A stretch of DNA of 64,000 nt, from positions 1-64,000 of the forward strand of contig JAHLWS010000022.1 in assembly GCA_019057795.1 (NCBI GenBank). The letters run 5' to 3'. Under the pieces are notes generated by a model. That model had not been told where the DNA came from. It searched no databases and worked only from the letters and a program-made list of their open reading frames with translations. The stretch is from Promethearchaeota archaeon (GTDB lineage: Archaea > Asgardarchaeota > Lokiarchaeia > Sigyniarchaeales > SOKP01). Positions 4,606 to 64,000 of this stretch are shown here, one piece after another. Both the position numbers and the translations under genes were made by a program. Each line of letters starts with the position of its first letter. The first letter of the stretch is position 1.

Positions 4606-4638
4606 AAATCAATAGAATTTAAAAAAAATAGTGTTTAC

Positions 4639-5568: not shown

Positions 5569-5601
5569 AATTGTTGACATAATACGACTATCTTTTCCTT
5601 G

Positions 5602-6843: not shown

Positions 6844-6853
6844 GAATAAACCC

Positions 6854-8248: not shown

Positions 8249-8364
8249 TTTTTTTTAAATGATTTTTTTTAATATAACTTTAATGTTAAACTTTAAAAAG
8301 ATTTTTTTTAATTTCTAATTATATATTAATTAATTCTTCCCAGTTTTATTAAAAATTAAAATTT

Positions 8365-9945: not shown

Positions 9946-10084
9946 TTCACGTATTGACAGATTAATATTGAATTGTCATGCAAGACTCTCCATGCAAAAA
10001 GTTTTAAAATAATTCCCTCAAAACTATTAAATTCTACTTAATTTCTCTAAAATAGATTTATTTGAATTAGGAAAGATTATAAAT

Positions 10085-12757: not shown

Positions 12758-12785
12758 GCAAAAATCTTTTATTCTTACCATGAAT

Positions 12786-13955: not shown

Positions 13956-14083
13956 AACAGCTACTTAATAATTAATTCTAATTAAAAGATAAATATTTCT
14001 TTTTATTTAAAAATATTTAGTTGATATAATATATTTAGCGTTTGAATTAAAAAATAGAAAGAATATTAGTTGTATATTAAAAT

Positions 14084-14215
14084 TTAGAGCCCTTTTTCTT
14101 TCCTTGCTTCTTCCGTGAATTCTGGGGGACTATCACAATTAGATGCGATTTTAGACTTTATACACTCTTCACAATATTTTAAATATATCTCATTTTCGGA
14201 GTCTTTACTATCCAT
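14084..14215 (-). CDS. Possible 43-aa small protein with CxxC
   Basis: Hand translation MDSKDSENEIYLKYCEECIKSKIASNCDSPPEFTEEARKEKGL; below ORF-track cutoff, no homology recognised. Confidence 0.3.
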   Translation of the reverse strand: MDSKDSENEIYLKYCEECIKSKIASNCDSPPEFTEEARKEKGL

Positions 14216-14543
14216 GTCAGCATCAACAAGTTAAGTATTAAAACTCATGGAATTAACGTTAATTATCTATTATAAAGTTTATTAAAATTGAATTTTTTAT
14301 ACACTAAAGGACAACAAATTACCGACATAATTAAAAGGTAAAACTCTACTCATCAGCAACAATTATGAATCTTTTTTTTAGGTTTTAGAGAAGGGGAGGG
14401 GGGTCGTTAAAAGTAAAAATAAACTAAATTAAGTAAATTAAACGCTAATAAGCCATTCAAAAAAGCAATTGGATATTAGTGTATAGACTATTTCTAAAAA
14501 CTTATAATTTTTCAAAAATAGAATCATACAAGATAATACTTTT

Positions 14544-15959: not shown

Positions 15960-16017
15960 AGGTTGAAATTAAAAAAAGTAGTGTTCTATTAATAAATAAT
16001 TACACTTTCAGATTTGG

Positions 16018-16752
16018 TTAGCTTTTAGTTAGTGATGAACCACATTCCCCACAGAATTTTCCCTCTCCAGTAATTTTTGCACCACAATTAGGACAAAACT
16101 TTTTATTTGAAGGTGTTGGAGCTGCTAGAGATACTTGTTGCGTGCTTGGCACTGGTGTTGTTGGAGTTGTTTCAGTATAACGAATTATCTCTTCTAATTT
16201 TGCCAATTTGAAATATCCAACTATTTGCAAAATCCACCCGATAAGAATTGTTATTATTAAAAACGAAAGAACATTCATTAAAGCGGCAGTTCTTAATTTA
16301 TCGCTTCCTTCTGAAGCCTCCAACGCGATGTGGGTAGGGAATAAACTACGATTTTGATTAAAGAAGTCTGTTAAACTACGCCAAGCATCCATTTCAATCG
16401 CTCCCGCTATGATGTTTATAATAAAGCTAATGATCATCGGTATTAATGTTAAAATACTGAAAGAGAATGGCCTACCTAAAGAGTAAAAAGACCCAGCCCC
16501 AGATATAACAGTACTAATTATCCTGAAAACGATTGCAATACTATATTTCGAGCGATAATTCTCTAACGAAGATTGTTTTAATTTATAGTTTGCGCTCCGT
16601 ATATCGCTTAAGGCCATAATAGCAAAAATAAATCCTATGAAACTTAAAATCGTACCAAGATATGGAATGATCGATAATAAGGTCATTATCGCAACTATTT
16701 TCATCTTCTTTCCAAATTCCGAAAATTCTTTCTTAATATCGACATTTAACAT
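16018..16752 (-). CDS. Membrane protein with C-terminal double zinc ribbon
   Basis: 4 TM segments, CPNCG...FCGECG; paralog of 17000..17746. Confidence 0.75.
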   Translation of the reverse strand: MLNVDIKKEFSEFGKKMKIVAIMTLLSIIPYLGTILSFIGFIFAIMALSDIRSANYKLKQSSLENYRSKYSIAIVFRIISTVISGAGSFYSLGRPFSFSILTLIPMIISFIINIIAGAIEMDAWRSLTDFFNQNRSLFPTHIALEASEGSDKLRTAALMNVLSFLIITILIGWILQIVGYFKLAKLEEIIRYTETTPTTPVPSTQQVSLAAPTPSNKKFCPNCGAKITGEGKFCGECGSSLTKS

Positions 16753-48671: not shown

Positions 48672-49883
48672 TTTCTTATAATTTTTTAATTTAAAATAAG
48701 TTGTAATTTAACTATTAGATTCTAATGTTTATAAAATTTTTAGTTTTTATAAAATATTCAATATTTTCATACGAATTAATCCATAATCAAGCTTTTGCTC
48801 ATTGTTACAGTTCAAAAAGGATTTATTTTTGTACATTTCAGTTACTAAAATTAGAGATAAACGACTAAAATCCATAAAAAAATAATAGGAAATAACATCA
48901 AAAAAAAAGATAAGATTAAAATTATTTTTATTTATTATGGTTTCTTTTCTAAAAATTCTTTGAATGGTAATGTAAGAACATCTCCGACAATAAAAAGTAT
49001 AAAAACTAGCAATAAGAAAATCGATGTTATTAGGAAAAAATACGAGTTAGACGAGTTTATTGAAAATTGTTTAATTTTTGTTCGAATTAAAGATAAAAAA
49101 TTTAAATTTGGATGGTTGTTCCAAGATAAAAATAATTATCAAAAATTATTATTAAAAATTGCGTTTTTTAACATTGACTTGATCGGATTGATTTTTAAAA
49201 CGGTATTAGAGTACGGTAAGGTCTTATTAGGACATAGGCAAAATCGCTCTTTTTAAAATAACTTATGTTATTTGAGGATCAGATATGTATTTAGTATGTA
49301 TGGATGAGTTTGAAAAAAAAATTACTCTTTCCTGAACTTAATTTTTTAATTATTTGAGCTTAAATTATTTAAATTCCATTTGCATCTCCTAACAAGTTTA
49401 AACTAGTACGCTTATTTAGTAGAACTCAAATTTGATTGGGATTAGAGAGGTTTTTAATATAAATGTGGTGTCAAAACTACTAAAAATGTACACCAATTAT
49501 TAAGACATTTCCAACTAAAAGGGTTGGAAACGGTTGGAAACCATTAAAAACGACGGGACACCATAGGACAAAAATACTACAAAAAAACCACCAAAACTAC
49601 CACATGTTAACAATTGGTTAATAAAGGGTTAATATATCACTAATCTGTTAGGCACATTCATTTATTAATGTAGAAAAATATTAATTATATAGAAAAAAAG
49701 GTGTCATTATAATCTCCAACGAGGACACCACACGAAATTACTTCTCCCTTTATTTGGGTTAGTAGGGCTTCCTTACTCTATTTGCCTTGTGTGGTTCATA
49801 GGAAACTTGGATAGACGCTTGTTCTATTTTCAAGATTAGGAAATATTTTAATAAAAATTAATAAACATAAGGTGAAAAAAATA

Positions 49884-49994
49884 ATGGAAATGACACTTCA
49901 GGAGTTTTTAAGAATAAAATCCGAGAAGATAAAAAAAGCAATTTTGGACGCTATTTTCAGAGAATACGATCAATACGAGGTTGATTATGATTAA
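49884..49994 (+). CDS. Small hypothetical protein (36 aa)
   Basis: MEMTLQEFLRIKSEKIKKAILDAIFREYDQYEVDYD preceded by AAGGTGA SD. Confidence 0.45.
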   Translation: MEMTLQEFLRIKSEKIKKAILDAIFREYDQYEVDYD

Positions 49995-50171
49995 TTACCT
50001 GATAAGTTATTGAATAATAAGTATTACAAGAAAAATTAAAAGATATTATACTTTTATTACTAATAACTATTAAATAAGTAATCCAGATAAAAATAATAAG
50101 GAAATTATTAATGTAAGATAATTAGCGATACTTGAATCTGCAGCATCAAATCATAAAAAAACGGCGTTATC

Positions 50172-50387
50172 ATGAAAAGAGAATTTAATATTATTATAGA
50201 ACAGGATGAAGATGGATATTATATTGCAAGTGTTCCTGAATTACCTGGATGCCACACTCAAGCTAAATCACTTGATAAGCTGCATGAGCGAATTATTGAA
50301 GCAATTGAACTATATATCGAAGTAGATAAAAAAAAGCTGGAAAAAACTAGTAAATTTTTCGGAATTCAGAAGGCAGAACAACAGTAA
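50172..50387 (+). CDS. hicB: HicB-family antitoxin (short form)
   Basis: IIEQDEDGYYIASVPELPGCHTQAKSLD.L.ERI.EAIELY. Confidence 0.9.
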   Translation: MKREFNIIIEQDEDGYYIASVPELPGCHTQAKSLDKLHERIIEAIELYIEVDKKKLEKTSKFFGIQKAEQQ

Positions 50388-50485
50388 TTCCTTTTCATAA
50401 AAGTGAAAAAATCGGAAGGGGATTATTACTAAAAATTTTGAAGGATATTAATATTAGTCGAGAGGAATTCCTAGCACTTCTTTAA
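50369..50485 (+). pseudogene. hicA: 3' half of a HicA toxin gene (no start codon, N-terminus deleted)
   Basis: Alternate frame reads EGRTTVIPFHKSEKIGRGLLLKILKDINISREEFLALL*, the typical HicA C-terminus. Confidence 0.75.
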
Positions 50486-50753
50486 CTTTATGATTACTTA
50501 TTAATTGGATCGATTTATCTTTTATCTAAAATAATAATTCAAATTAACAATTTTAAGATAGCAATAATTCATTGAAATTCTTGTTAAATAATATGTCAAT
50601 ATGCATTTAGATAATATAGACATATATCGAATTGATCGTAAAAGAAACGTTTTAATTCGAAAAAGTGATAAGAAAAGTATAACATTTAAATAAGATGATT
50701 GTATTATTTATATTATACAATAAAAACTAATAAAAAAGAGATGACTCAAAAAA

Positions 50754-50966
50754 ATGGTAAAATGTTTGTTAACCTACGAAAGCGACGATAAAGAATGGAT
50801 CGAGTCTTTTGAATACATTAAGAAATACGAAGCTTTAGCCTATATTATTAGGAGAAAAGAAGACGACGGTTCAATTGACGTAGAGATTAACGAAGTTTGT
50901 ACTTCTAAAAAAGACCTCATTAAATTAAGAGATTTTTTGAACGGTTTAAATTTGGAGGGGAATTAA
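50754..50966 (+). CDS. Hypothetical protein
   Basis: First gene of the operon leading to the integrase. Confidence 0.6.
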   Translation: MVKCLLTYESDDKEWIESFEYIKKYEALAYIIRRKEDDGSIDVEINEVCTSKKDLIKLRDFLNGLNLEGN

Positions 50967-50968
50967 AA

Positions 50969-51490
50969 ATGAGCGCAAAAGTTAAAGTTAGGAAGTTAAA
51001 AGCGCCTGAAGACATACGCAAAAAAATGATTCATATCATGTTATCCGAACGAGAAATGGCCGAACTCGACGAGTTTAGGGAAGGAACTACTCGAACGGAG
51101 TTTATCCGACAAGCTTTAAAAGATAAATACGATAGGATCGAAAACCCTCAATTGTTTATGGGTAATGGCGCTTCCTCAAACAACGATCAAATCTCAGAAT
51201 TTTTGAGCGAAATTAAAACTACCAACGTAGAAACTAAAAAAATGTTAAAAAAATTGGTAAGTTTAAACGAAATTAAAACCATACTAAAAAGCGTTCAAGC
51301 GATGGCAAATAAACCCGAAATCGAGAAGAACGAAAAAATAATTGTAGAATTACTAAGAGAAAAGAAAAAGTTAAAACCTTTAAAAATTATCGAACTTACC
51401 GGGTTAAGAAATAACGAAGTTTACGACGTAATTTCAAACGATTTAATGTTTTCAATTAACATGAATGGCGAGGTAATTTTGAATGAATAA
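50969..51490 (+). CDS. Ribbon-helix-helix (CopG-like) regulator with coiled coil and C-terminal wHTH-like region
   Basis: IHIMLSEREMAELDEFREGTTRTEFIRQAL RHH pattern; overlaps the integrase start. Confidence 0.65.
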   Translation: MSAKVKVRKLKAPEDIRKKMIHIMLSEREMAELDEFREGTTRTEFIRQALKDKYDRIENPQLFMGNGASSNNDQISEFLSEIKTTNVETKKMLKKLVSLNEIKTILKSVQAMANKPEIEKNEKIIVELLREKKKLKPLKIIELTGLRNNEVYDVISNDLMFSINMNGEVILNE

Positions 51491-52403
51491 TAAGGAAGAA
51501 TGGCCTTCAAATCGCGAAATTATCGACAATTACTTAAATTATTACAATAAGGGTTCTTACTCCTATAACACGCGAAAATCGAGCTTAAATTATTTTTTTA
51601 ACCAAGAGAATTTTAATTTTAACGGTAAAATTTTCGAGATCAACACTTCAGTTTTGCTCGATTACCATAAGTTTCTAAAAAGCAAGGATATTACGGTCCA
51701 AACGCAAAAAAACAAGTGGAATATTTTATCCTCTTTTCTAAATTACACCATGGAATATTACTATAAATTCGATTTCTTGGTAAAAATACCTAAGAAAACT
51801 ATTAATTGGCGCGGTACTAACGGAAGCGGTAATAAGAAAGTAAAAGATTTGATCGAAAAATCTGACCTGGAAAGATTATTATTGCATTTTAAATTTAGGA
51901 ACACGAAACACTACCTTATCTTTAGGTTGTTTGCCGAAACGGGCATGAGAAAATCTGAATTGCGAAACGTAAAGATTAACGATTTAGATTTGGAAAAGCG
52001 AACGATTAAATCTTTTGGTAAGACCGAAGACGTGGTTTATTATTTTACTAAAGATTTGGCTAAATTTTTGAAGCAATTTATATCAGGACGCAAAAAAGTA
52101 GACGTTAATTCCAATATCCTTTTTCTTACTAAATACTTCAAAAAATACTCCGATAGGAGTTTTAACTTGCTTTTAAAAGAAGCTTGTAATAATTTAGGAA
52201 TAGAATCTCATATTACTTGCCACACTTTTAGATGGACAATAAACACTTATCGAAAATTGATGGGTTGTAGTGGCGAGGATCGTAAAATACTCTTAAATCA
52301 TCACGTTCAAGGCGTAAACGTTCAAAATTATTTAATCTTAGATTACGCGACCTATATTAGCATGTACGATCAATATAATCCTTATACCGAGCTTAAGTAT
52401 TAA
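51483..52403 (+). CDS. Tyrosine recombinase/integrase (XerC/D-like)
   Basis: ETGMRKSEL (R), GK (K), CHTFR (HxxR), LLNH, downstream Tyr. Confidence 0.9.
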   Translation: MNNKEEWPSNREIIDNYLNYYNKGSYSYNTRKSSLNYFFNQENFNFNGKIFEINTSVLLDYHKFLKSKDITVQTQKNKWNILSSFLNYTMEYYYKFDFLVKIPKKTINWRGTNGSGNKKVKDLIEKSDLERLLLHFKFRNTKHYLIFRLFAETGMRKSELRNVKINDLDLEKRTIKSFGKTEDVVYYFTKDLAKFLKQFISGRKKVDVNSNILFLTKYFKKYSDRSFNLLLKEACNNLGIESHITCHTFRWTINTYRKLMGCSGEDRKILLNHHVQGVNVQNYLILDYATYISMYDQYNPYTELKY

Positions 52404-52666
52404 CAATTTTTATTCTTTTTTTTAATCTTTTTTTCTATAATTATAATTAAATAAACGTATTATTTAAATATTATAATAAAATCTATTAACCAATTTTTTA
52501 CGTCGATATATTTTACTATTTTAATAGTAAAAAATGTAAGTGTATAATACGCTTCTATTAATTCAATAAAATAGAAGACTATATATATTCAATTTGTTAT
52601 ATTAATGTGAGAATATAGTTCTATTGAATTGTATTCTAATAAAATATAAAAACGAGGTTAGAAAAT

Positions 52667-52801
52667 ATGGAACACGATAAAAATATAGGAATTAACAAAA
52701 AACTTCACATGCGAGTCAAATTAAAAGCAACTAAGGAAGAAAAAACGATTAAAGACTTCGTTAGTGAAGCAATAGAAACAAAATTAGAGGTTGAGGATTA
52801 A
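52667..52801 (+). CDS. Small ribbon-helix-helix DNA-binding protein (44 aa)
   Basis: MEHDKNIGINKKLHMRVKLKATKEEKTIKDFVSEAIETKLEVED; GAGGT SD; below ORF-track cutoff. Confidence 0.7.
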   Translation: MEHDKNIGINKKLHMRVKLKATKEEKTIKDFVSEAIETKLEVED

Positions 52802-52966
52802 ATGGCAATAAGCAACCTTAACCTAACAAACCAAAATCTAACTACAATTAAAAGATTGATGTATTCGCGTTTAGATACGCTATTCCAGAAAATAAATAAT
52901 GGAGATGGTACGAATTCTGAAAATAAAAGTAAACTTGGTAACTCCGAACCCCAGGAAGAAGAGTAG
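52802..52966 (+). CDS. Small hypothetical protein (54 aa)
   Basis: Starts immediately after the previous stop (TAAATG coupling), GAGG SD. Confidence 0.5.
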   Translation: MAISNLNLTNQNLTTIKRLMYSRLDTLFQKINNGDGTNSENKSKLGNSEPQEEE

Positions 52967-53101
52967 AAAAAAAGGATCATATTCGCTTTATCCGGGCTTA
53001 TTAGATTCTTTTTTTCTATTTAATAGAATATCTTACGAATTTTTAAATCTTACCATTTTAAAGGGTTTTTGCGATAAAAATCAAAAGAGGTCGATCGCAA
53101 A

Positions 53102-56035
53102 ATGAACGTCTTAGATTGTTATCCCGAAGAATACAACATCTTATCGTGTAAAATAAGTTTCTTGGAAAACGGCAAAAAAGATATAATTTTCCTGGAAGAT
53201 TGGAAAAAATACCAAAACGAAAAATATCCAAGAAACTTAATAAATAGCAATAGTTCTAATTTTTACGTTATTTGCGGGCAAATTTCAAATAATTTGATTG
53301 TTTTTGATTTTGATGTAGTTAAAAAAAAAGAATGTAATTCAGAGGAAATATACGGTAAAATTATCGAAATAGAACCGAGATTTAAGGAAGCCTTAACGAT
53401 CCAAACTCAATCAGGTGGTCTTCACTTTCACGTTCAAGTCGAATCGATGGATTGCTATAATATGCTTAGTAGAAATAAGGATATACCGTGTAATCTCGAA
53501 GAGATTGACCATATCGACGTTCAAGGAGAAAAGAAAATCGCAATTTTATGGACCAAGATTATCAACCAAGAAAAGCCTTTAAAAATTACTAATTCGGAGT
53601 TTTATGAAATACTTGGTAAATTTAAGGGAAAAGAAGAAAAAGCGTTAGAAGTACCTAAAAAAGAAGTAAAAACAACGATTAATAACATTGATCTTAACAA
53701 ATTGGATAAACCATATCGAGATTTTTTAAACGGTAAATTTAAAATTGATAAATATTGCGAAAAAACGGGGATTGGTGAAAACCAATATTGGAAGGATTTG
53801 TATTGGCACGTGTTAAAGAGGTTAGGATTGTACCATTACGACCTATATCCAATTTTGGAGAAAACTCAACCGGAATTTTCTAAAGAGAAAACAGAGGCGC
53901 AATTGAAGTATAAATACCACGATTATAGGCTTCCATTCAACACAAAATCCAAACCAGGATTTATAAAAAAATCCAAATATGAACTTTATCCCGAATACTA
54001 CAAAGAAACTGAAGAAATAATTACCGATCGTGAAAAATTACGGAAAATATATCAAATACAAACAGGTAAGAGGGCAACTTGGATTCGTGATGGAAAAGAA
54101 TTTTCTACAAATGATTTTTCGAGATGGGAGGCTAAGGTAAAAGGTAAAGCGTCGGAAGAAACAGTAAAACGCCAAGAAGAGCAAATCGTTGAAGAATTAA
54201 TCGATGAATTCGATCTTCTCGTGTTAGACGACACCAAACAAATACTTGTTAGGGAATACATGGCTTATCTATTTGAAATGAGAAATTTTGAAGACGAATT
54301 AAAAAGTAAAATCTTCCGAATAGAAAAAGGTTCTTATTCAAACGTTAAAAAAGATATTTTAGCCATGATAAAGGACGACAAACGAGTTAGGGTTAAACGA
54401 GATGAGTTCTATAACAAAACAGACATAATACCGTTCAAAAATGGTGTTTACGATTTTAAAACTGATTATTTTTTTAAAATCGAACGAGTAAAGGATTTTA
54501 AATTCTTTTACGAAATATCGCACGATTATAGGGAAGATAAAGAATATAAATGTCTTAAATTTAAAAAAATCTTAGTACAATGGATAGACAAAAAAACAAA
54601 GCAATATCATCGCAAAGGAAAAAGAAAATTTCTATTAAACGATATTTTTGAAGCAATTGGATTAACTATGACCATGAACACCGGGTTTAAGAAGCATTTT
54701 ATACCTTTAGGACCTACTGACGCGGGAAAAACGCAGTTCGGAAACATTAGAAACGCCCTTTTTGACAATAGAAACATGGTTGGAAGTTCTTTACAACGCA
54801 TTGGTTCGAACGAATTTGGAACGGATAATTTACAGTTCAAGGTAGCTCTGGCCTGCGACGAGCTTCCCGAAGGATTAATAAAACAAACGGGACCTATAAA
54901 AAACCTTTTAGGAGGAACTACGTTGATGCAAGGCGAACTTAAAGGAGGTAAAAAGTTTTTGTTTAAACCTTACGTAAAATGTTGGTTTAACGCTAATAAA
55001 CCGGCAGAACTCAAGAATCCAAACGATCCCGCTTTTTACAATCGATTCATATTTATCTTTTTTCCTAACGAGTTTAAACAAGGCGATAAAACGTTTACTA
55101 ACGACATCTGGGAAGACATCGTAAACGACGACGACGAGATGCAGGGTATTATCCACGAAGCAATCGAAGGATATAAAAGGATTTTAGAGCGTAAAGGTTT
55201 TCGAAAAGAAGTAACCGAAAATACCCGACACATTTGGCTTTACAATTCGGACCCAATATACAAGTTCCTACATAATTACACCGATAAAGACGACGAGTAT
55301 CACGGTAAAATTACTGCAAAAGATTTTTTAGAAAAGTTTGCCGTTTACGGAAACGTTGCTTGGTCAGCCCAAAAAGTTTATGTCCGCCTCAACCAATATG
55401 GCGTGGTAAAATATATGGGTGATGAGTTCCAGAAACTTCGAGGTATTAAATGGAAGGAAGGAGTATGGGATGACGAGAATAACAAGGATGAGATAGAAAA
55501 GAAGAAAGAAAAAACACCTAAAATCATGGACGAATTTTTTTTAAAAGAAGAGCCTGAAATAATCGAACAACCAACTTTTGAACTTTTATTTACTCCCGAA
55601 GAAAAAGAATTAATCAAAAAGTTACAAGGAGAATTAGATTACATGAAAATACCCGTTTCGATGGACAATTTATGGGTTACTACGGGAGCAGATAAAGACT
55701 TTACTTTCCCGGAATTTGAAGCCATTATCGAAAAATTGGATTTAATCGTCGAAGACGAAGAATTTGGATACAAAACGGTGAGATTACCTAAAAAAGAAAC
55801 ACAAATTATAGAAGAAGTAGATCCTTATAATTTAGAAAAAAATATTGAGAAATTAGAAAAAGAAATTAAAGAAAAACAAGATGAACTTAAAAAGATTGAC
55901 GATATCGAGAAAGTTAAAGAGATACAGAAAGAAATATATATAAAAAAAAAAGATCTAAAATTTTTCAAAGAAATAGAAAAAAAAGAAAACGAAGGTTTTG
56001 ATAATTTAACAAAACTTTTGAAAGGTGAACTCTAA
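53102..56035 (+). CDS. Bifunctional primase-polymerase fused to D5/P4-like SF3 helicase
   Basis: LIVFDFD and TQSGGLHFH primpol motifs; IPFKNGVYD; Walker A GPTDAGKT, Walker B ACDE, motif C NAN, AFYNRF. Confidence 0.88.
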   Translation: MNVLDCYPEEYNILSCKISFLENGKKDIIFLEDWKKYQNEKYPRNLINSNSSNFYVICGQISNNLIVFDFDVVKKKECNSEEIYGKIIEIEPRFKEALTIQTQSGGLHFHVQVESMDCYNMLSRNKDIPCNLEEIDHIDVQGEKKIAILWTKIINQEKPLKITNSEFYEILGKFKGKEEKALEVPKKEVKTTINNIDLNKLDKPYRDFLNGKFKIDKYCEKTGIGENQYWKDLYWHVLKRLGLYHYDLYPILEKTQPEFSKEKTEAQLKYKYHDYRLPFNTKSKPGFIKKSKYELYPEYYKETEEIITDREKLRKIYQIQTGKRATWIRDGKEFSTNDFSRWEAKVKGKASEETVKRQEEQIVEELIDEFDLLVLDDTKQILVREYMAYLFEMRNFEDELKSKIFRIEKGSYSNVKKDILAMIKDDKRVRVKRDEFYNKTDIIPFKNGVYDFKTDYFFKIERVKDFKFFYEISHDYREDKEYKCLKFKKILVQWIDKKTKQYHRKGKRKFLLNDIFEAIGLTMTMNTGFKKHFIPLGPTDAGKTQFGNIRNALFDNRNMVGSSLQRIGSNEFGTDNLQFKVALACDELPEGLIKQTGPIKNLLGGTTLMQGELKGGKKFLFKPYVKCWFNANKPAELKNPNDPAFYNRFIFIFFPNEFKQGDKTFTNDIWEDIVNDDDEMQGIIHEAIEGYKRILERKGFRKEVTENTRHIWLYNSDPIYKFLHNYTDKDDEYHGKITAKDFLEKFAVYGNVAWSAQKVYVRLNQYGVVKYMGDEFQKLRGIKWKEGVWDDENNKDEIEKKKEKTPKIMDEFFLKEEPEIIEQPTFELLFTPEEKELIKKLQGELDYMKIPVSMDNLWVTTGADKDFTFPEFEAIIEKLDLIVEDEEFGYKTVRLPKKETQIIEEVDPYNLEKNIEKLEKEIKEKQDELKKIDDIEKVKEIQKEIYIKKKDLKFFKEIEKKENEGFDNLTKLLKGEL

Positions 56036-56362
56036 ATGACGTTAAAGATTAAAGAATCCGAAACCCTCGAGCATTACAACGCCATCGCTTACAAATACTA
56101 TTTAAATTCGGGCGAAAAAAGGGAATGGCGTAGGGATTTTTGTAGAACTACTCCGTTTCACAAAGGTAAAGAGGCGCTTAAACAACACTACGCCGAAAAC
56201 GGAGCGGTCAAATGTTTTATGTGTAATAAACCAATCTTAAGAGGCGAACGCACCCAAATCCTTTACCTAACCGGGATTCCCGACCCAAGAAAAATATTCA
56301 ATCCAAAAACGGCTAAAATATGCCATAGATCGTGCCTTCAAAGTTCGAGGTTGAGGGTATAA
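56036..56362 (+). CDS. Zn-binding HNH-like protein
   Basis: CFMC...CHRSC; catalytic His not evident. Confidence 0.5.
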   Translation: MTLKIKESETLEHYNAIAYKYYLNSGEKREWRRDFCRTTPFHKGKEALKQHYAENGAVKCFMCNKPILRGERTQILYLTGIPDPRKIFNPKTAKICHRSCLQSSRLRV

Positions 56363-56605
56363 ATGGAAAATTCAAAACTTATCAACCAAGTTTTTTTAAA
56401 AGAATACGAGAAAATACAAATAAAATATCCTGAATTTGTTAAAAGAATCGAAAATCGAGCTAATTGGATCGCCATCCTCTTAGACAAATCTATTACTTTT
56501 CTCAAATTGCTCGGTTTGGAAGGGGAATTTAAAAGCAGGTTAAACGATAACGAACTTTTCGTTTACAATTCCATGAAAAAAATAAAAGAGGAAGTGAACA
56601 AATAA
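56363..56605 (+). CDS. Hypothetical protein
   Basis: TAAATG translational coupling. Confidence 0.6.
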   Translation: MENSKLINQVFLKEYEKIQIKYPEFVKRIENRANWIAILLDKSITFLKLLGLEGEFKSRLNDNELFVYNSMKKIKEEVNK

Positions 56606-57010
56606 ATGACATATAGCTCCGAGTTGGAAATTTACAAACAAGACTTCGATTGCGAATTAAGAGGCGTTATTTCAAAATCTAAAGAATTTCAAGCGCAATT
56701 CCCCGATTTAGACGTCCTCGAAAACAAACGCTCCGAAAAGGTTAAAAAAGCGTTAGATTCTTTCGTGCAATATCACATAGGAATTTTTGACAAGTTAAAA
56801 ATCGAAATAGAGTTAGAAATGGCATTAAACACCCTAAACGAACGATGTAAGAACGAAATAGAGGAGAGATTACACCCGATCGAAGATTACGAGTATTGGG
56901 AAGAAGACGATTTAATAAGCGTTTGTTCAAATAACGATCTGAAAAATCTATTAAAAATTATAGAAAAAATATCGTTAAATGAATTGATAATTATAGAAAA
57001 AGAGGCGTGA
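56606..57010 (+). CDS. Hypothetical protein
   Basis: TAAATG translational coupling. Confidence 0.6.
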   Translation: MTYSSELEIYKQDFDCELRGVISKSKEFQAQFPDLDVLENKRSEKVKKALDSFVQYHIGIFDKLKIEIELEMALNTLNERCKNEIEERLHPIEDYEYWEEDDLISVCSNNDLKNLLKIIEKISLNELIIIEKEA

Positions 57011-57014
57011 AATA

Positions 57015-57155
57015 ATGGAAAACAAGAAAATAATTGTAATTCACGAAGTACCGTATAAAGTTCTAAAAAAATATTTCGAAGAAGAAAAAACGCTCGAAAG
57101 CCTTAAAGCCATAAGGGACTACGAGGAGTTTGTTAAGAAAAGAATTAAAAATTAA
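57015..57155 (+). CDS. Small hypothetical protein (46 aa)
   Basis: MENKKIIVIHEVPYKVLKKYF...; 4 nt after the previous stop. Confidence 0.5.
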   Translation: MENKKIIVIHEVPYKVLKKYFEEEKTLESLKAIRDYEEFVKKRIKN

Positions 57156-57180
57156 ATTATAAAAGAGGTGAAAAAACAAC

Positions 57181-57354
57181 ATGAGCGAAGAATTAACGGA
57201 AAACAATAAAAGAACTTTTAAAGCGATTAATTGGTTAAAAGAAAGGCACGAAACTAACGATTTACTTCACTTGTTAAAAGACGTACCTGAAAACGAGATA
57301 AAGATGTTTTTAGAAGTTGGTAAATTTATCGAAATGATGGAAAAATTAGAATAA
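57181..57354 (+). CDS. Small hypothetical protein (57 aa)
   Basis: MSEELTENNKRTFKAINWL...; GAGGTGA SD. Confidence 0.55.
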   Translation: MSEELTENNKRTFKAINWLKERHETNDLLHLLKDVPENEIKMFLEVGKFIEMMEKLE

Positions 57355-57397
57355 TTAATTTTTTTTATTTTAAATTAAAAATTACCAGGAGAAAATT

Positions 57398-57742
57398 ATG
57401 AAAATATTCCATAAAAAAGACCAAGAAAAAGTTTCTAAAATAGTTCCAGAAAATAATGCAGTTGAAAATGCATTTATAACAAAAAAACAAATTCCCGAAA
57501 CCGACGAGATCCGCCCATTCCATTTCTCAAAACATGGCTTCGAAATCCTATGGAACGCGACCAAAAACCACTACGTAATATTTATCAACCCGGAAATTTA
57601 CGACCTCCCCATCCCCATCATGTATAAACTAAACGAGAAGTTATCGGACCTATTCTTCGAGTTCTATTGGGAAGAAAAAAACAAACAAGCCAAAAAAGAA
57701 TACGAAAACGTCAGACTCGGCAGGTTCATAGACGGCGCTTAA
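57398..57742 (+). CDS. Hypothetical protein
   Basis: AGGAG SD; last gene before the non-coding origin-like region. Confidence 0.55.
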   Translation: MKIFHKKDQEKVSKIVPENNAVENAFITKKQIPETDEIRPFHFSKHGFEILWNATKNHYVIFINPEIYDLPIPIMYKLNEKLSDLFFEFYWEEKNKQAKKEYENVRLGRFIDGA

Positions 57743-57786
57743 ATTTTATTTTTTATCCCATTCGGGATTTTTTCCCTTCTTAATAA

Positions 57787-57990
57787 AATACTTAAAATAC
57801 TTAAGAAAATATTTATAAAAAAATATCATCACCCTTATACCCATCGCAATTGTTAGTAAAATACTTACAATACTTATGACTTTTTTAAATTACTATATAT
57901 AAGCAGGGGGTGGGGTATATGTATTTTTTATAACGATATATACCCCCCAACTTATGACCGTGATGTCACCTATTTTATAAGTATTATAAG
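57787..57990. repeat. Iteron-like repeats and palindrome; putative replication origin of the element
   Basis: AATACTTA at 57787, 57796, 57860 and 57869; inverted TAAGTATT at 57978; GGGGTATAT/ATATACCCC inverted repeat 57912-57946. Confidence 0.6.
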
Positions 57991-58700
57991 TTAATTTATT
58001 TCTCAAAATATTACTAATGTAATAACTCTTAAATAGCGTTCTTATTACTATTATATATTATTAGAATAAGACTTGAGAAGTGGATTAGGATGGAATTAGA
58101 AGGGTTGTAATAGGAAAATAGAATTATGTTATGACGTGAAAATAATGGAACGAAATATAGAAATTAGGAAAATAAGGGATATATTGGGTATATTTTTAAT
58201 TTAATTTACTTGGGTTAGGAAGTTGTTAATAAAAAAGTACGAATCTACGAATTGAAAGTAAGTGGTAATAAAAGTTGGAATGTTAGAATAATTTAAGGTT
58301 ATAATTAATTCGAATTTTACTTGATGAACTTCTTAAAATATAGATTTTAGGATCGAAAAATGATATTTTAATGATAAGAAATTGGGTATTTTTAGGGAAA
58401 ATATGTGCTGCCATACTTTTATTGAAAAGTTTTTAATTTTTGTTCGGATTAATTGTAAAAAATATAAATTTGAATGGCCTTCCATGATAAAAAAATAATC
58501 CCATCCTTTACCCACGAAAGTTGGTAAAGAAAAATAATTTAGAATTGACGGAAAAACTTTTTTCCTAATCAGAAAAATCTATTTTTTTAACCGTTAATAG
58601 AATATTCACCTAACGGTCGATCGTTGTTATTTTTTAACAAATTATTAATGAGAAATAGCCTAAGAACGTAGAATAAGCGTAAATAAATAATTTATTGAAG

Positions 58701-59000
58701 TTATTTTATAATTTTATAGGTTTTGGCGTTGTATTTCTCGATGGCTCCTGAGATTTTGTAAGGAGCAAGTAATTTCCCTATTTTTCTTATTAATTTTTGA
58801 ATTATGGCGCGGTCTTTTGTTAAGTCGTTAAAGGTTATTTGATAATTGGCGCTGAGGTAATCTATGGCTATATCGCGGGTTTTGAAATAGGAGTGTTTTG
58901 CTACGAATTGTTTGACGAAGGGTTCTAATTGGTTTAAGTTTGGGTTATTTTCCGGGTTTATAGAGGAATCGTATTGGAATAATTTGTTGTTTATTACCAT
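58701..59000 (-). CDS. Hypothetical protein, possible winged-helix
   Basis: FKTRDIAIDY...IGKLL...GAIEKYNAKTYKI wHTH-like pattern. Confidence 0.55.
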   Translation of the reverse strand: MVINNKLFQYDSSINPENNPNLNQLEPFVKQFVAKHSYFKTRDIAIDYLSANYQITFNDLTKDRAIIQKLIRKIGKLLAPYKISGAIEKYNAKTYKIIK

Positions 59001-59071
59001 TAATAAGGCCTATTTTTGTTAAAATAAATTACGATTTAGGTATAAATTGACTACTATTTGAAGTAAATTTA

Positions 59072-59506
59072 CTAATATCTGTGGGAGCGTAGGGCGAGGG
59101 TAATGGCGTTTAATCGTTCGAGTTCGGATTGTTCTTTTTCGATTATTTTATCTGCGACTACTTCGGGAATGGGTTGGAATTCGTTTTTAGAATAGAAGGG
59201 GATGTCGTATCCCTTTCTTATTGCTTGTAATTGGTCTTTAGGTGGAGTTGCTGGGTGGCCGAATTGCTCAAAATATTGACATCGGTAAACGTGGAGCTTG
59301 TTTTTGAAGTCGTTTATGTTAGCAATGAAAGGTCGATATTCTTCCTGGAAGTAATTACAAGCCTGATCCAACGTAGAAAGCGGGTAATCCCGCATGAATT
59401 TAAATAGTTTAGAGCGTAGGGAACCGGGTCTGAAGGCTCGGGAAAAGCGTTGGGAGTATCTTGGCGTCTTATAGTTGATTTTTTTCCGGGTTCGGTTTAA
59501 TAGCAT
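59072..59506 (-). CDS. Hypothetical basic protein, possible DNA-binding
   Basis: Arg/Lys-rich N-terminus; divergent from the 59.7 kb operon. Confidence 0.55.
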   Translation of the reverse strand: MLLNRTRKKINYKTPRYSQRFSRAFRPGSLRSKLFKFMRDYPLSTLDQACNYFQEEYRPFIANINDFKNKLHVYRCQYFEQFGHPATPPKDQLQAIRKGYDIPFYSKNEFQPIPEVVADKIIEKEQSELERLNAITLALRSHRY

Positions 59507-59715
59507 AATAAAATAAAATAGGAAGAGAGGCTTATATCAACTTCCTATTAGTTTAAATTTTTTAATTAGATTTAGGTTATTAGATATATGTTTAAGAAAC
59601 ATATAATATTATTTATTTATGGGTTAGATTCATAAGTTTTATAAAGTGTTATTACCAATTATCAATATGAGAAGTAGGAAGTTAATTCTTACTTCTAAAA
59701 AAATTATAAAAAGGG

Positions 59716-60678
59716 TTGATAAAAAAAAACATGAGTATTCAAGATTTAAAAAAGAACTTAGACGCGAAAATGAAGGGTTTGAGGTCGCTTAAGTTTGGTT
59801 TTACCGATAACGCGACTCCGAGTTTTACCGAAGTGGCCGATGGGATCGATATTGACGCTTCGGGAGTAGCTTTTGATAAAAATAAACTTGCTGAGAAAAT
59901 CGAACTCGCTAAAAAAGAAAAATTAGATTTACAAAAAAAGAAAGATGGCGCTATTAAAGACGACGAGGTTTACACGGGCGAGGATTCGACGGGTTTTGGT
60001 GGTCAGGGCGATAAGGAGCAATTTATATTGGCTTGTATGCAGGCAGGCGGGAGTTTAGAGAATTGCGAAAAGACTTGGTTGTTAAAGTTAGCCGGTTATG
60101 GTATGACGCCTGAGTTGGCAAAATTAATTGAAACTTTAGGGAAAACGAAAAGCGTTGACACGCTCGAGTATCGAGACGGCGATTTAGAGCGCATAAAGAA
60201 CGATTTTGGAGTGGATTTAAAGCCTATAATCGAGAAGCTAAAGAGAGTAGACGGGATATGTGCTAACAATAAAAAGTTGGTCGCGGAAAACAAAAAACTT
60301 AAAGACGATTTGGTCGGAATGAAGTCTATTTACGATGCGTTGCAGACGAGTTGGGTAAAGAAAGCAGAGGATCGAAAGCTCGAGTTAAAGGAAGTATTAT
60401 CTAAAGATTACGACGAAACCGACGATTTTTTGAAAGAAAAGAGTTTAGAAGATCTCGAAAGTTACCTAAGAATCTATAAAAAGGTTGGTAAAAAAGACGA
60501 CGGCGTTAAGCTTACTCCCGAAGAGGAGCGGGAAAAAGACATGAACGATAAATCCAATGGTATCGAATTACCACATCGTATTAATCAAGGCGGTATAATT
60601 AGCGATTTTGAGGGTTATATCGATCGAAAGATGGAAATAGAGCGAAAAGAAAAGTTTGGGTGGGGTAAGGAAGAATAA
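59716..60678 (+). CDS. Coiled-coil, charged protein; possible viral head scaffold-like
   Basis: Long D/E/K-rich heptad regions; likely ATG at 59731. Confidence 0.55.
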   Translation: MIKKNMSIQDLKKNLDAKMKGLRSLKFGFTDNATPSFTEVADGIDIDASGVAFDKNKLAEKIELAKKEKLDLQKKKDGAIKDDEVYTGEDSTGFGGQGDKEQFILACMQAGGSLENCEKTWLLKLAGYGMTPELAKLIETLGKTKSVDTLEYRDGDLERIKNDFGVDLKPIIEKLKRVDGICANNKKLVAENKKLKDDLVGMKSIYDALQTSWVKKAEDRKLELKEVLSKDYDETDDFLKEKSLEDLESYLRIYKKVGKKDDGVKLTPEEEREKDMNDKSNGIELPHRINQGGIISDFEGYIDRKMEIERKEKFGWGKEE

Positions 60679-61427
60679 TGGGATTCGAGGATTTAAAAGG
60701 TTTGAGTAAGGCGGAACTTTACGTCGTTTTAACTGATTTAGCAAACACTCGAACTAACGCCTTCGGATTTAATGAATCTGGTCAACAGATTTACGATTTA
60801 GCGGAGGGTTTGAAGTTTGGCGTTTTAACGCCTGAGGATATAGTTGGATCGGGAGATTTAGACGGTATAATAAGCGATTTTGTTGAGGAAGTTAAAGACG
60901 ACGGGATATCTCCTGAAATGATAAACGAGATTTTAGTGGATAAGTTTCACGTAGGTAAAAAGCTCGAGATTGATAAGACCGGAAAAGCCAGATACGTGAA
61001 AGACGATGGAGCGCCTCAGGATTTTGAAGTTTACCTTAGGAAGCCTGAAGTGGAAGTTAAACCCGAGATTAAAGAAGATTTTACTGAAAAAATCTTAATG
61101 GTCAAACTTAAAGAAAAGAGCGATAATTTGGGTAAAGAATACCCGGAATTGTTTGGTAAAGATACTACTATTGACGACGCAGTCGCTTTAAAGAAAAAAC
61201 TCTTAAAAGAGAAAGCAGAACTCGAGGATAAGATTAAAGAAGACGGAGTAAAAGAAGGTTATAGCAAACAAGAAATCGAATATTACGTAAATAATTTACT
61301 CGAAGATTTAGAGAAAAAAGACGATTTTGTCGATGCAGAGACTTTAAAGAGTTATAATAGCATAAAAGGTAAGTTAAAAGCCAATTTACAAGAGATTTTA
61401 TTGGAATTTAACGATAAAGGGGAGTAA
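60678..61427 (+). CDS. Acidic coiled-coil hypothetical protein
   Basis: TAATG overlap; shares GIISDF and KDDG motifs with the upstream gene. Confidence 0.6.
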   Translation: MGFEDLKGLSKAELYVVLTDLANTRTNAFGFNESGQQIYDLAEGLKFGVLTPEDIVGSGDLDGIISDFVEEVKDDGISPEMINEILVDKFHVGKKLEIDKTGKARYVKDDGAPQDFEVYLRKPEVEVKPEIKEDFTEKILMVKLKEKSDNLGKEYPELFGKDTTIDDAVALKKKLLKEKAELEDKIKEDGVKEGYSKQEIEYYVNNLLEDLEKKDDFVDAETLKSYNSIKGKLKANLQEILLEFNDKGE

Positions 61428-61429
61428 TC

Positions 61430-61906
61430 GTGCCGGTGCGACAAGTAGACGTATTGGAAGTATTATTTAACTCTTCTATACCGTTAAGCGTTAACGATAT
61501 CGTTGGTAAGTTAAATCTCAACGAATCTATTGAAAGTACGCTAAAAACAACGCCAAAAAAAAGAGTCTCGACGTGTTTGCGTTATTTAGAAAAAAAAGGT
61601 CATGTAGCGAGTTATAAATTTCACGAAAAAGACGAGATTGTATATAGACACAAAGGAGAAATGATTAAGGATTTAATCGTTCACGTTATGGTTTCGAACT
61701 TACATCCTTTCTACAAAACCGAATTTATGGAATTAGTGTCTCCGGCGTTAACCGACGAGAAACGCGAGATTATTGGTAAGGAAATCGAAGTTTATAAAGC
61801 TTATTTAAAAGAAAAAGGTCCGAACGAAAAAAGTCTTGAGGAAGTTCGAGACAAAGTAATACGAATTAATTATTATAACGAAAAAAAGAACGAATATTTT
61901 ACTTAA
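61430..61906 (+). CDS. Winged-helix DNA-binding protein
   Basis: VLEVL....PLSVNDIV..L...VSTCLRYLEKKGHV. Confidence 0.65.
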   Translation: MPVRQVDVLEVLFNSSIPLSVNDIVGKLNLNESIESTLKTTPKKRVSTCLRYLEKKGHVASYKFHEKDEIVYRHKGEMIKDLIVHVMVSNLHPFYKTEFMELVSPALTDEKREIIGKEIEVYKAYLKEKGPNEKSLEEVRDKVIRINYYNEKKNEYFT

Positions 61907-61921
61907 ATAGGTGAAAAAATT

Positions 61922-62716
61922 ATGAGTTTAGTAAAATTGGAAGGTTATTTAGAAAGAATTACGGACCCGAATAGAAGAAGCGTGTTAAGAGCCGTTAAGA
62001 AGTACGTGGTCGAATTAGAAGGGTATTCAAGTAGAGTTGGCGAGTTCGCTAAGAGATATACGGTGACCGACCCTAACGATATAGCTTTTTACGAAGGAGC
62101 CGGGATTAACTTAAGCAAGGATTTCCCAACGCAAATAGCGGAATTTAAAGAAAGGATCGTTAGGGAAGCTATAAACGGTAGTATCGATAAACAACTTATA
62201 GAAAACGTCTTGGCCTATTTTTGTTGCGACGTGGTTAAAATCGAAAAGTTATGGGACGATTTAGTGAACCCTAAAAGCGTCGATGGGGAGAAAGAATTAA
62301 TCGAAAAAATAGCCGGTTTTCAAAAGGCTCTGAACGGTCTTACTTGGCATCCAAGGTCTCACGCGCTCGATAAAAGCGAGACCGAATTAATCGTATCCCG
62401 TATTTTAGAGCGATTGCGTAAGCACGGGTTAAAGGGGATTGGAAGGCCGTTTTTGATCCGCTTGAAAGTTTTGAAAAAGTCGCCCGAAAAAGAAGGAGAG
62501 CCGGTAACCATCGAAGAGATGGAAGTAATTGCGAATAGGATCGAGAAGGAAGTTAAATATTGGGAAGAATTGCTTACAGAACACGCGAATAAATGTGCCG
62601 AATCGAAAATGATTAAAGAGATAATGCGGGAACAAAAGAAAGAATTCCCTAAAATAACGCCTGAAATCGTAAAGGAAGAAATAATAGGGAAAATATCGCT
62701 TAATAAAACGGGTTGA
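61922..62716 (+). CDS. Hypothetical protein
   Basis: AGGTGA SD, 264-aa ORF in operon. Confidence 0.65.
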   Translation: MSLVKLEGYLERITDPNRRSVLRAVKKYVVELEGYSSRVGEFAKRYTVTDPNDIAFYEGAGINLSKDFPTQIAEFKERIVREAINGSIDKQLIENVLAYFCCDVVKIEKLWDDLVNPKSVDGEKELIEKIAGFQKALNGLTWHPRSHALDKSETELIVSRILERLRKHGLKGIGRPFLIRLKVLKKSPEKEGEPVTIEEMEVIANRIEKEVKYWEELLTEHANKCAESKMIKEIMREQKKEFPKITPEIVKEEIIGKISLNKTG

Positions 62717-63045
62717 TCGTTATTATAGAAGGAAATACTCCGATTACGATTCGAATAGAGACGCCTGAAAGGGCTATATTGCGGGAAATCAACGAGAATC
62801 TCTATAATGGAGACCATAATTACGGACCATTGTTACAACGGATTTGTAATTTTGCAGTTCACGAATTTATGAGAGAATATAAAGATTCGAAAAAGAATCA
62901 AGCGATTAAAGATCGTAAGGACGGTTTACAAGACCTACGGGAAACGCTTATAATCGAAGGGCTTCCAAAATTAGAGAAGGAAATTATAGGGTTAGGGGTT
63001 TCGAACGCTCGTAGTTTCTTTTCTAAGATGTTCGAGAAAAAATAG
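62713..63045 (+). CDS. Hypothetical protein
   Basis: TTG start overlapping the previous stop (TTGA). Confidence 0.5.
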   Translation: MIVIIEGNTPITIRIETPERAILREINENLYNGDHNYGPLLQRICNFAVHEFMREYKDSKKNQAIKDRKDGLQDLRETLIIEGLPKLEKEIIGLGVSNARSFFSKMFEKK

Positions 63046-63143
63046 GAAAATTTAATTAGAAAACGGGGGGATGTTTTTTTTTATTCCCTCCAAAAAAACA
63101 TTTACTTAGAATAAAATAATAAAATAAGAGTTGAAAAGAAAAA

Positions 63144-63386
63144 ATGAAAATAAAAAAATTAATATTAATGGTTATATGTTTTATTGGGTTAATAGGTTTA
63201 TTTGGTTCTTTATCGTATAGTTTAATCATAATTATAGTTATTTTTTCAGAAGGGATGATTTCGTTTATTGAACCAAATCTTTTAATGTTAACAGTAGAAT
63301 TAATTATGATTATTATTAGTATTGTTAGTTTTCCAATTATTGTTTCTTCTACAGTAAAAAATATATTCTTTAAAAAAATTAATTAG
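63144..63386 (+). CDS. Small 2-TM membrane protein
   Basis: Two hydrophobic helices, basic termini. Confidence 0.55.
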   Translation: MKIKKLILMVICFIGLIGLFGSLSYSLIIIIVIFSEGMISFIEPNLLMLTVELIMIIISIVSFPIIVSSTVKNIFFKKIN

Positions 63387-64000
63387 GTGAATTATGTTAT
63401 TAAATATTATAATTACGAAGATTTAGGGATAACGAGCGCTAAAAAACCGTTTAACACGCATTTATTTTGGCACCACGCAACTTATGGTTTTGTTATGGTA
63501 GATTCAGTAGATCAAACGGTTTTATTGTTTTCTACTAAAGCACGTCTATTAATTGACGGTTCCGATTGGGATACGGTAGATTTATCTGATAACACTAATT
63601 CCTATAAAATTCAGGCGGGTTGGTTAGACGGAAACGATTTGTGGTTAGTTATGTGTGATAATCCAGGAGACGATTTTGGAGTATGCTACGTAGAATTAGA
63701 CGATTCTAACGATTGTAATCCCGTAGGAATTGGAGCAGGTGGGACTGCTGATGCAGGTACGGTTTACGCTTACGATATTTTTAAAATAGGAACGGATGTT
63801 TTTGTGTTAAATAATGAGGAAAGGACGAATGTCCCAAAAATAGTAGTGTGGGATGTTGATACAGCTCCTTTTATTGAAAAAGACTCTTGGAATGGGGCAG
63901 ATTGTACTTATAATCTTGGTCCTTATTCTTTTGTTGTTATTGTTGGGAATATAGTTTATTTTACGGTTGACATGATCGGTTGTAATTATGTTGGTATAAT
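63387..64000 (+). CDS. Beta-rich protein, possible virion structural/adhesin; runs off the window end
   Basis: Open frame from GTG 63387 to the end (over 200 codons): YYNYEDLGITSAKKPFNTHLFWHH...IQAGWLDGNDLWLVMCD...AYDIFKIGTDVFVL. Confidence 0.65.
   Translation, partial: MNYVIKYYNYEDLGITSAKKPFNTHLFWHHATYGFVMVDSVDQTVLLFSTKARLLIDGSDWDTVDLSDNTNSYKIQAGWLDGNDLWLVMCDNPGDDFGVCYVELDDSNDCNPVGIGAGGTADAGTVYAYDIFKIGTDVFVLNNEERTNVPKIVVWDVDTAPFIEKDSWNGADCTYNLGPYSFVVIVGNIVYFTVDMIGCNYVGI

Follow-up and report, generated by a model that had tools for sequence, protein, structure and literature searches.

An integrative element with a virus-derived scaffold gene in a Lokiarchaeia chromosome, a probable satellite of tailed viruses

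Introduction

Several satellites encode proteins which shrink the capsid of their helper virus, such as CpmB of the Staphylococcus aureus pathogenicity islands (SaPIs), Sid of P4 and TcaP of the phage-inducible chromosomal island-like elements (PLEs) (PMC12409344). The archaeal satellites in the literature found are pSSVx, pSSVi and the SRCEs of spindle-shaped viruses (10.1101/2025.02.15.638363) and the putative Asgard satellite NMV2S (3.8 kb; 10.64898/2026.08.12.739948). Here, an integrated element in a 64,000-nt stretch of Promethearchaeota archaeon DNA (the window) is described. Contig C22 (JAHLWS010000022.1, 77,728 bp) of the 4.95-Mb assembly G000 (GCA_019057795.1) begins with the window, and positions above 64,000 are contig coordinates.

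The element was shown to be precisely integrated, to carry its own replicon genes, to be devoid of head and packaging genes and to have acquired its scaffold and its tail tip from a family of ~47-kb tailed viruses of Lokiarchaeia, referred to below as helper-type viruses. It is probably an integrative, self-replicating satellite of this family which works like SaPI CpmB.

The closest described systems are the SaPIs and other phage-inducible chromosomal islands (PICIs) with CpmB or Rcm (SaPI1, SaPIpT1028; PMC12409344). As in these islands, the integrase of the element is followed by a primase-helicase, a putative origin and a helical scaffold mimic bearing the C-terminal motif of the helper scaffold; the major capsid protein (MCP), portal and TerL are missing, and the size is about one third of the helper genome. 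The PICI features present include a site-specific integrase with att repeats and an empty site, and the origin was assigned from repeats and skew. In contrast to PICIs, the element has an archaeal host, no divergent repressor pair (stl/str) or alpA between the integrase and the replication gene, and no recognised TerS. The mimic, 315 aa long, is truly homologous to the helper scaffold and bears the motif at its two ends, and the element has a baseplate hub and a fibre of its own. Since the repressor pair is absent at the integrase, tail genes are present and no homology to PICI genes was detected, the element is not filed as a PICI; the likeness is functional and not by descent. Capsid-forming PICIs encode their own MCP, portal and terminase and take only tails, whereas the element has none of these three genes.

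Results

Boundaries and target site

The size of the element was determined to be 16,428 bp from the 14-bp direct repeats at 50,639-50,652 and 67,067-67,080, the sole direct repeat of such length common to both flanks, and from the empty site of four relatives (G005, G008, G014, G015), where the DNA left of attL is joined via one core copy to the DNA right of attR. The similarity to G008 and G014/G015 restarts at 67,067. The element is complete and precisely inserted in an Asgard chromosome; the closest relatives of the flanking host AlaX gene are in Promethearchaeota (Lokiarchaeia) genomes. All 23 open reading frames (ORFs) are open and cover 87% of the element, and its CpG ratio is 1.77 compared with 0.95 in the host part of the contig. 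The first-pass annotation of the window had put the start at 49,450, which has to be moved to attL, leaving a HicAB remnant (50,172-50,490) outside. It had also taken the element to be cut off by the window with capsid genes possibly following: the element does extend to attR, but no capsid genes follow. The proposed mobility agrees with the empty site, as the element is not conserved in all relatives.

When rebuilt, attB reads as an inverted repeat whose arms flank a 6-bp centre, and it closely matches TCGTGAAA-N6-TTTCACGA. The integration cut falls within the 6-bp centre of this conserved host palindrome. Twelve further copies of the motif were detected in the same genome, compared with zero in shuffles and zero with other spacings, and each of the 24 other genus members tested contained 3-12 exact copies. 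The 12 free copies rule out that attB is a unique dif site. Other copies of the palindrome, each with its own centre, are occupied by an element on C82 (integrase 50% identical) and by the G070 provirus (integrase 45% identical). Both the element integrase and a host XerA-like protein (C56:51,045) remain candidates for the recombinase acting at the palindrome.

The dif-like palindrome with its 6-bp centre occurs genome-wide in G000 (C15:838, C33:2714, C60:37488 and C80:8344 among examples) and in 24 relatives. The centres are locus-specific and kept across species, often near toxin-antitoxin or defence genes or contig ends, and at least three different elements use the palindrome as an insertion site. 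The palindromes may be a set of host recombination sites. The C82 element (G000:C82 115,376-125,500; L053) is a 10-kb capsid-less island with an RHH gene, the mentioned integrase and a 3' fragment of a second one. In L047 (G004:C145, 6,830-8,165), two palindrome half-sites flank a 1.3-kb remnant which contains a duplicated piece of a gelsolin-like gene and encodes the C-terminal 86 aa of a hub homologue. Left of attL there is a strain-specific islet (49,020-50,530) with a HicB gene and a broken HicA, in the place of which relatives have other cargo. Its 85-bp stretch at 49,056-49,140 is 84% identical to 58,418-58,500 within the element and is perhaps a remnant of an earlier related insertion. 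About 20 bp past attR, the host AlaX gene starts with CTG (C22 ~67,100; L001); the relatives have ATG.

The 315-aa scaffold

Among 1.84 billion protein representatives, the best match of the 315-aa protein outside the element family was P0030 (E 3.8e-14, profile search). In a comparison with 5,745 host and virus ORFs, P0030 was again the best (E 1.2e-19), the next one being at 0.02. P0030 is a 670-aa protein encoded between the portal and the 328-aa HK97-fold MCP of a ~46.8-kb circular tailed virus. This MCP folds like HK97/encapsulin shells (E 5.6e-8, low-confidence model); a PDB search with it gave no match. The alignment spans just the last 190 residues of P0030 with 30% identity, and the protease part, assigned by position, is absent from the 315-aa protein. 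The identity to helper-type scaffolds was 30-34%, compared with 59-64% to the proteins of sister contigs.

The terminal 23-residue motif of the helper scaffold, with the end K-F-G-W, is found at both ends of the element protein. The C-terminal copy scored 75 and the N-terminal copy 51, the best score among 1.41 million host windows being 37. The N-terminal copy is present in both sisters covering that end (scores 53 and 40). The N-terminus of the neighbouring 249-aa protein was rejected as a third copy (score 4-9). The protein is derived from a helper-type protease-scaffold and is under purifying selection, and it is rebuilt rather than cut down, having its own start, a duplicated terminal motif and an internal insert.

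The modelled complex of the helper MCP with scaffold residues 268-315 resulted in a value of 0.76, whereas the best of three controls gave 0.00. Of 80 solved pairs, 58 reached the mark used, and of 110 mismatched pairs, 2 did; as the model was built from own alignments, these counts apply only roughly. The runs shared at least 56% of the contacts, with a partner pLDDT (predicted local distance difference test) of at least 53, and residues 309-311 of the scaffold packed against MCP residues 21-26, 200 and 236-239. The model, which covers the C-terminal motif and says nothing on shell size, shows a predicted MCP-binding surface kept by the scaffold.

Head and packaging genes

No MCP, portal or TerL was detected in the element with Pfam and PHROG, as had been noted before. 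The Pfam Terminase_6N and portal searches also missed the provirus on contig C78 of the same assembly, therefore absence from Pfam alone is weak evidence here. The absence of head genes is instead concluded from the small ORF set, which is listed completely, and from comparing the element directly with the proteins of the helper: the helper MCP, portal, TerL, tail tube and tape measure match nothing inside the att sites, and tail tube, tape measure and distal tail gene are missing from the element. Between the window end and the host AlaX gene there are only the rest of the 850-aa gene, the 176-aa fibre and the 122-aa ORF. Neither conjugation genes, nor a morphogenesis/packaging ATPase besides the helicase, nor a beta-rich ORF of capsid size were found in the element.

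Candidate helper virus

The helper-type contig (GCA_004196295.1, SDBS01000282.1) is present in two assemblies, in different rotations of 46,844 and 46,851 bp, and is therefore circular. Relatives of its MCP are on contigs of 47,189 and 47,309 bp, and the P0030 scaffold shares one contig with a hub 77% identical to that of the element. The size ratio of the element to the presumed helper type, 16,428/46,850, is 0.35, and the T=4/T=7 volume ratio is 0.43. A ratio of 0.35 is about that of SaPI/80alpha and P4/P2. The tetranucleotide correlation (r) with the helper-type virus was 0.85-0.89 in all three parts of the element, compared with ~0.5 with the host.

Two CRISPR spacers of this assembly match helper-type genes. 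One matches the MCP gene (30-31/37) and the other a neck-region gene (30/36), the mismatches to the latter falling mainly on third positions of codons; by chance, the highest match reached in the 5-Mb genome is 28. The flank of the array recurs beside a Cas locus on C29 with a composition like that of the host. The match of a third spacer to the scaffold-cement junction (25/36) was rejected as being within background, and none of the G000 spacers match the element. On G000:C3, C19 and C29 there are CRISPR arrays and a Cas locus rich in RAMPs, in which a DUF1874-like gene was recognised by eye.

The helper-type contigs (L064/L059/L060, SDBS01000282.1; L061/L079; L066; L068; L071/L072) represent a family of temperate tailed viruses of ~47 kb which seems not to have been described before. 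They have an encapsulin-like MCP, very long protease-scaffolds (670-1722 aa), sugar-modification genes within the packaging region and highly variable hub-adhesins. In the literature searched, with incomplete coverage, no paper was found on this element type or on the helper-type contig. The C78 provirus (G000:C78 ~300-16,400; L075) is a 16-kb verdandivirus-like tailed provirus with TerL, portal, a 135-aa scaffold, an MCP-size gene, tail tube, a 1353-aa hub-adhesin and an integrase. It was ruled out as the donor of the scaffold or the hub, as it matches neither.

Conserved module and sister contigs

The scaffold gene belongs to a conserved seven-gene module, partial sister copies of which are on three other contigs (L054, L055, L057; dN/dS, the ratio of nonsynonymous to synonymous substitution rates, 0.13-0.4). 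Two close relatives of the scaffold were found, and the third sister contig was detected with the 264-aa profile. The accessions of the sister contigs are SRR30888626_906, SRR14872671_90365 and Ga0114925_10061044. Of the element itself, 6.2 kb are present with 100% identity in SRR30888638. The order 315-249-158-264-short ORF is kept as far as each contig reaches, and L055 also has both minus-strand genes. No MCP follows the scaffold on the three sister contigs, and on L055 no portal precedes it. The genes of 249, 158, 264 and 110 aa had no match in the helper-type DNA examined, and the 264-aa gene was found in none of the 399 other genomes of the phylum. The IMG/VR and GTDB scans gave no relatives. 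The non-coding block between the minus-strand genes and the scaffold is, by its conservation, a candidate late promoter or packaging signal. The 144-aa ORF was rejected as a copy of the helper TerL N-terminus: the pairwise E value was 0.009, but the likeness was below the proteome background. As a possible distant sister, L070 (SRR30965929_114215) has a minus-strand 107-aa gene like the 144-aa ORF, a 202-aa protein and a winged helix-turn-helix (wHTH)-like gene in that order; the 202-aa protein shares the middle scaffold motif and not the terminal one.

Tail-tip cassette

The last 260 residues of the 850-aa protein scored 0.96-0.98 against the gp44/YqbQ/Sipho_Gp37 hub clusters; PDB and PHROG profile searches with the hub gave no match, and the single-sequence fold of the whole protein (pLDDT 31) was not used. 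The hub region is 71-86% identical to eleven proteins, and 77-86% to hubs in helper-family tail operons. All four hub relatives looked up are in tail operons, downstream of the tape-measure and distal-tail genes. The N-terminal anchor of the 176-aa protein is common to the fibre downstream of helper-family hubs. The DNA of the cassette is 76-81% identical to helper-type viruses over ~0.9 kb, and the dN/dS of the hub is ~0.1. As the sister L055 has other genes at this position, the cassette is accessory. Residues 8-344 and 388-588 of the 850-aa protein are also found in giant proteins encoded by Loki genomes. Two open frames, with 20,619 codons (G107:C13) and 13,771 codons (G000:C74), have adhesin domains in common with the viral hub, which suggests that sequence is exchanged between giant surface proteins and the receptor-binding proteins of viruses.

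Integration and replication genes

The remaining features are presented in Table 1. The element integrase has 38-52% identity to a family in Lokiarchaeia mobile elements and 21% to the integrase of the helper-type virus. In the 977-aa protein, the DxD, HxH, Walker A and Arg finger motifs are present; its primase half had no Pfam match, and the two halves are matched separately in other Loki genomes. The genes at 50,754-57,742 are all co-directional, and only two ribbon-helix-helix (RHH) genes are present there as regulators. An 8-mer occurs in four copies, as two tandem pairs at 57,787-57,876, at a local GC-skew minimum (four copies were reached in 14 of 2000 shuffles), which makes a replication origin plausible.

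The first-pass annotation had named an RHH-integrase operon, a small RHH gene, a primase-polymerase fused to a superfamily 3 (SF3) helicase, short ORFs, a wHTH gene and a two-transmembrane (2-TM) protein, all of which were recovered, the wHTH with a weak match. The iteron origin proposed there is only partly backed by the repeats. Its two divergent genes exist as minus-strand ORFs, their DNA binding being putative. The scaffold-like coiled-coil genes were recovered as helical genes, and the idea of interference with morphogenesis was strengthened by the scaffold homology and the passing complex model. The supposed beta-rich protein was recognised as a baseplate hub of a tail, with adhesin domains, which means that virion genes are present in the element. 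As to the PICI-like gene order, the integrase, primase-helicase, putative origin and scaffold mimic were upheld, whereas the absence of a repressor pair between integrase and replication gene and the presence of the tail-tip cassette depart from it. The proposal of an undescribed Asgard provirus or satellite was supported on the satellite side, with no structural module downstream.

Table 1. Features of the element (positions above 64,000 are beyond the window).
Feature	Position	Strand	Remarks
attL	50639..50652	+	core TAAAAGAAACGTTT, left half of host palindrome with 6-bp centre; direct repeat, empty-site junctions, rebuilt attB/attP
70-aa ORF	50754..50966	+	no significant family; possible excisionase or regulator
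173-aa RHH regulator, coupled to integrase	50969..51490	+	RHH_1 E 0.005; paralogue precedes C82 integrase
Tyrosine integrase	51483..52403	+	PF00589 E 3.9e-18; R, K, HxxR, H, Y motifs intact
44-aa RHH (52667-52801) and 54-aa ORF	52667..52966	+	weak HicB/56B_RHH matches
977-aa primase-polymerase fused to SF3 (D5-like) helicase	53102..56035	+	DUF5906 E 1.7e-10, D5_N E 1.9e-6
Six short ORFs (108 aa Cys-rich, 80, 134, 46, 57, 114 aa)	56036..57742	+	ORF list, family search
Putative replication origin	57777..57960		two tandem 8-mer pairs and G/C-run hairpin region; repeat family D15; putative function
99-aa ORF	58701..59000	-	56% identity in sister L055
144-aa ORF	59072..59506	-	52% identity in sister L055; weak, non-significant likeness to helper TerL N-terminus
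Non-coding block	59576..59702		87% identical in sister L055, compared with 67-69% for coding DNA
315-aa protease-less scaffold	59731..60678	+	homologous to helper-type protease-scaffold; capsid-binding motif at aa 3-25 and 290-312
Module genes of 249, 158 (wHTH), 264, 110 aa	60678..63045	+	sisters L054, L055, L057; dN/dS for first three; wHTH weak, Penicillinase_R E 0.0055
80-aa two-helix membrane protein	63144..63386	+	same-size 2-TM gene precedes hub in several helper-type viruses, without sequence match
850-aa tail-tip protein	63,387-65,939 (window part 63387..64000)	+	adhesin domains, then C-terminal baseplate hub
176-aa tail fibre	65,905-66,435		phrog_8469 E 0.0015; E 8.8e-14 to fibre of L068
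122-aa helical ORF	66,532-66,900		before attR
attR	67,067-67,080		~20 bp upstream of host AlaX

Discussion

On infection by the helper, the satellite would excise and replicate. Like SaPI CpmB, its protease-less scaffold would compete with that of the helper for binding to the inner side of the helper capsid protein. With its two-ended binding motif, it could bridge two capsid subunits and thereby favour a smaller shell (T=4 instead of T=7), large enough for 16.4 kb and too small for 47 kb. The helper terminase may be redirected by one of the module proteins (that of 144, 158 or 264 aa). The hub-adhesin and the fibre could act as an accessory cassette replacing the tail tip of the helper and setting the satellite's own receptor range. 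More tentatively, and somewhat short of an even chance, the element would belong to the first archaeal family of capsid-size-redirecting satellites, with a double-ended scaffold arisen from a duplicated capsid-binding tail, and with some members fitting their own host-like-adhesin hub and fibre onto a hijacked tail.

Several points weigh against the satellite reading. Neither excision nor circles, particles or an increased copy number were observed. The searches gave no TerS or pac site, and the likeness between the 144-aa ORF and TerL was not significant. The exact helper is absent from this assembly and the helper type is not integrated there; the co-resident C78 provirus is not of this type and matches neither the scaffold nor the hub. 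The comparison covered the helper genome except ~16 kb, from where the primase-helicase or the module genes could derive. The sister contigs are fragments of 2-6 kb, and head genes could lie elsewhere in the sister elements. The CRISPR contig has a length of 7 kb and belongs to a bin contaminated to 7.5%, and none of the other members of the genus has its repeat. The complex model is confined to the C-terminal motif, and close relatives of true partners also pass, so it amounts to likeness to the helper scaffold.

The element could also be a defective or chimeric provirus, a helper-family member which has lost its terminase, portal, capsid and tail-tube genes, with the scaffold and the tail tip as leftovers having no hijacking role. 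The helper oligonucleotide signature of the whole element, the helper order kept for scaffold and tail tip, and the 16 kb of helper DNA outside the comparison would fit such an origin. We consider it unlikely, since the scaffold is not a mere leftover but rebuilt, is closer to the sisters than to helper scaffolds and is under purifying selection, and the cement/MCP position is taken by the same genes in the element and in sisters from different samples. The open ORFs and the intact att sites and integrase do not point to decay either, and the integrase is not that of the helper.

Less probable still is an integrative plasmid-like element whose scaffold copy is purely antiviral, poisoning capsid assembly, which spreads without packaging and has the tail cassette as a recent passenger. 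The lack of a packaging gene or pac site, the absence of the cassette from L055 and the presence of the same integrase family in capsid-less islands such as C82 are in line with it. However, there are no conjugation genes and the size is 0.35 of that of the helper, the tail DNA identity and the helper-like composition fit transfer in particles, and the low dN/dS of the hub also speaks against this reading. An autonomous virus with an unrecognised virion, either spindle-shaped with the 80-aa 2-TM protein as the coat or with a double jelly-roll capsid like Fylgjavirus, can be regarded as very improbable. The size equals that of Fylgjavirus 1 (16.1 kb, 10.64898/2026.02.13.705702), a small 2-TM protein is present, and the folds of the 249- and 264-aa proteins are unassigned. 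Against this, no packaging or extrusion ATPase besides the helicase and no beta-rich ORF of capsid size are present, the 2-TM gene corresponds by position to the gene before the hub of tailed viruses, and the scaffold and hub are parts of head-tail viruses.

Sid and TcaP are external scaffolds unrelated to those of their helpers, whereas the protein of the element derives from the internal scaffold of the helper. P4 and PLE are otherwise similar to the element in being integrative and capsid-less and in shrinking the helper capsid, which is proposed for the element (PMC12409344). NMV2S is likewise a putative satellite with an Asgard host, a head-tail helper, a helicase-primase and an Arc-like regulator, but, as far as the accessible part of its description goes, it is a 3.8-kb circle which appears to recombine into the helper and forms concatemers, with no chromosomal integrase, scaffold or tail gene reported (10.64898/2026.08.12.739948); it is set apart by this description. 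The archaeal pSSVx, pSSVi and SRCEs (10.1101/2025.02.15.638363) also combine a plasmid-type replicon with captured helper morphogenesis genes, but their helpers are spindle-shaped and the captured genes encode an ATPase or a coat protein, not an HK97 scaffold or a tail hub.

Among viruses, the verdandiviruses (10.1101/2021.07.29.453957) also have a baseplate hub with an adhesin domain, but are ~20 kb in size without replication genes, whereas the element has its own. The 47-kb helper-type viruses have a scaffold, hub and fibre anchor homologous to those of the element, which differs from both virus groups in having no TerL, portal, MCP, tail tube, tape measure or distal tail gene. Fylgjavirus 1, a Loki provirus (10.64898/2026.02.13.705702), is comparable with the element in size, host, a non-tRNA inverted-repeat site and a tyrosine recombinase, but has a double jelly-roll MCP and a packaging NTPase and no replication gene. 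These two hallmarks of skuld- and fylgjaviruses were not found in the element, the folds of the 249- and 264-aa proteins being outside this check. The hallmark of wyrdviruses and other spindle-shaped viruses is a two-helix coat with an AAA+ morphogenesis ATPase, and no such ATPase is present in the element.

No archaeal satellite with a scaffold mimic was found in the literature, capsid hijacking being described so far for satellites of bacterial phages, and neither a two-ended scaffold nor a satellite-encoded baseplate hub was found described. If the satellite reading is true, SaPI-type capsid hijacking would be extended to archaeal head-tail viruses by convergence, and the origin of the redirector would be traceable to the helper's own scaffold. 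Co-expression of two or three proteins would be enough to test the central claim, with no need for a culture of the host. In Asgard archaea, the integrase with its palindromic target could also be used as a tool for site-specific integration.

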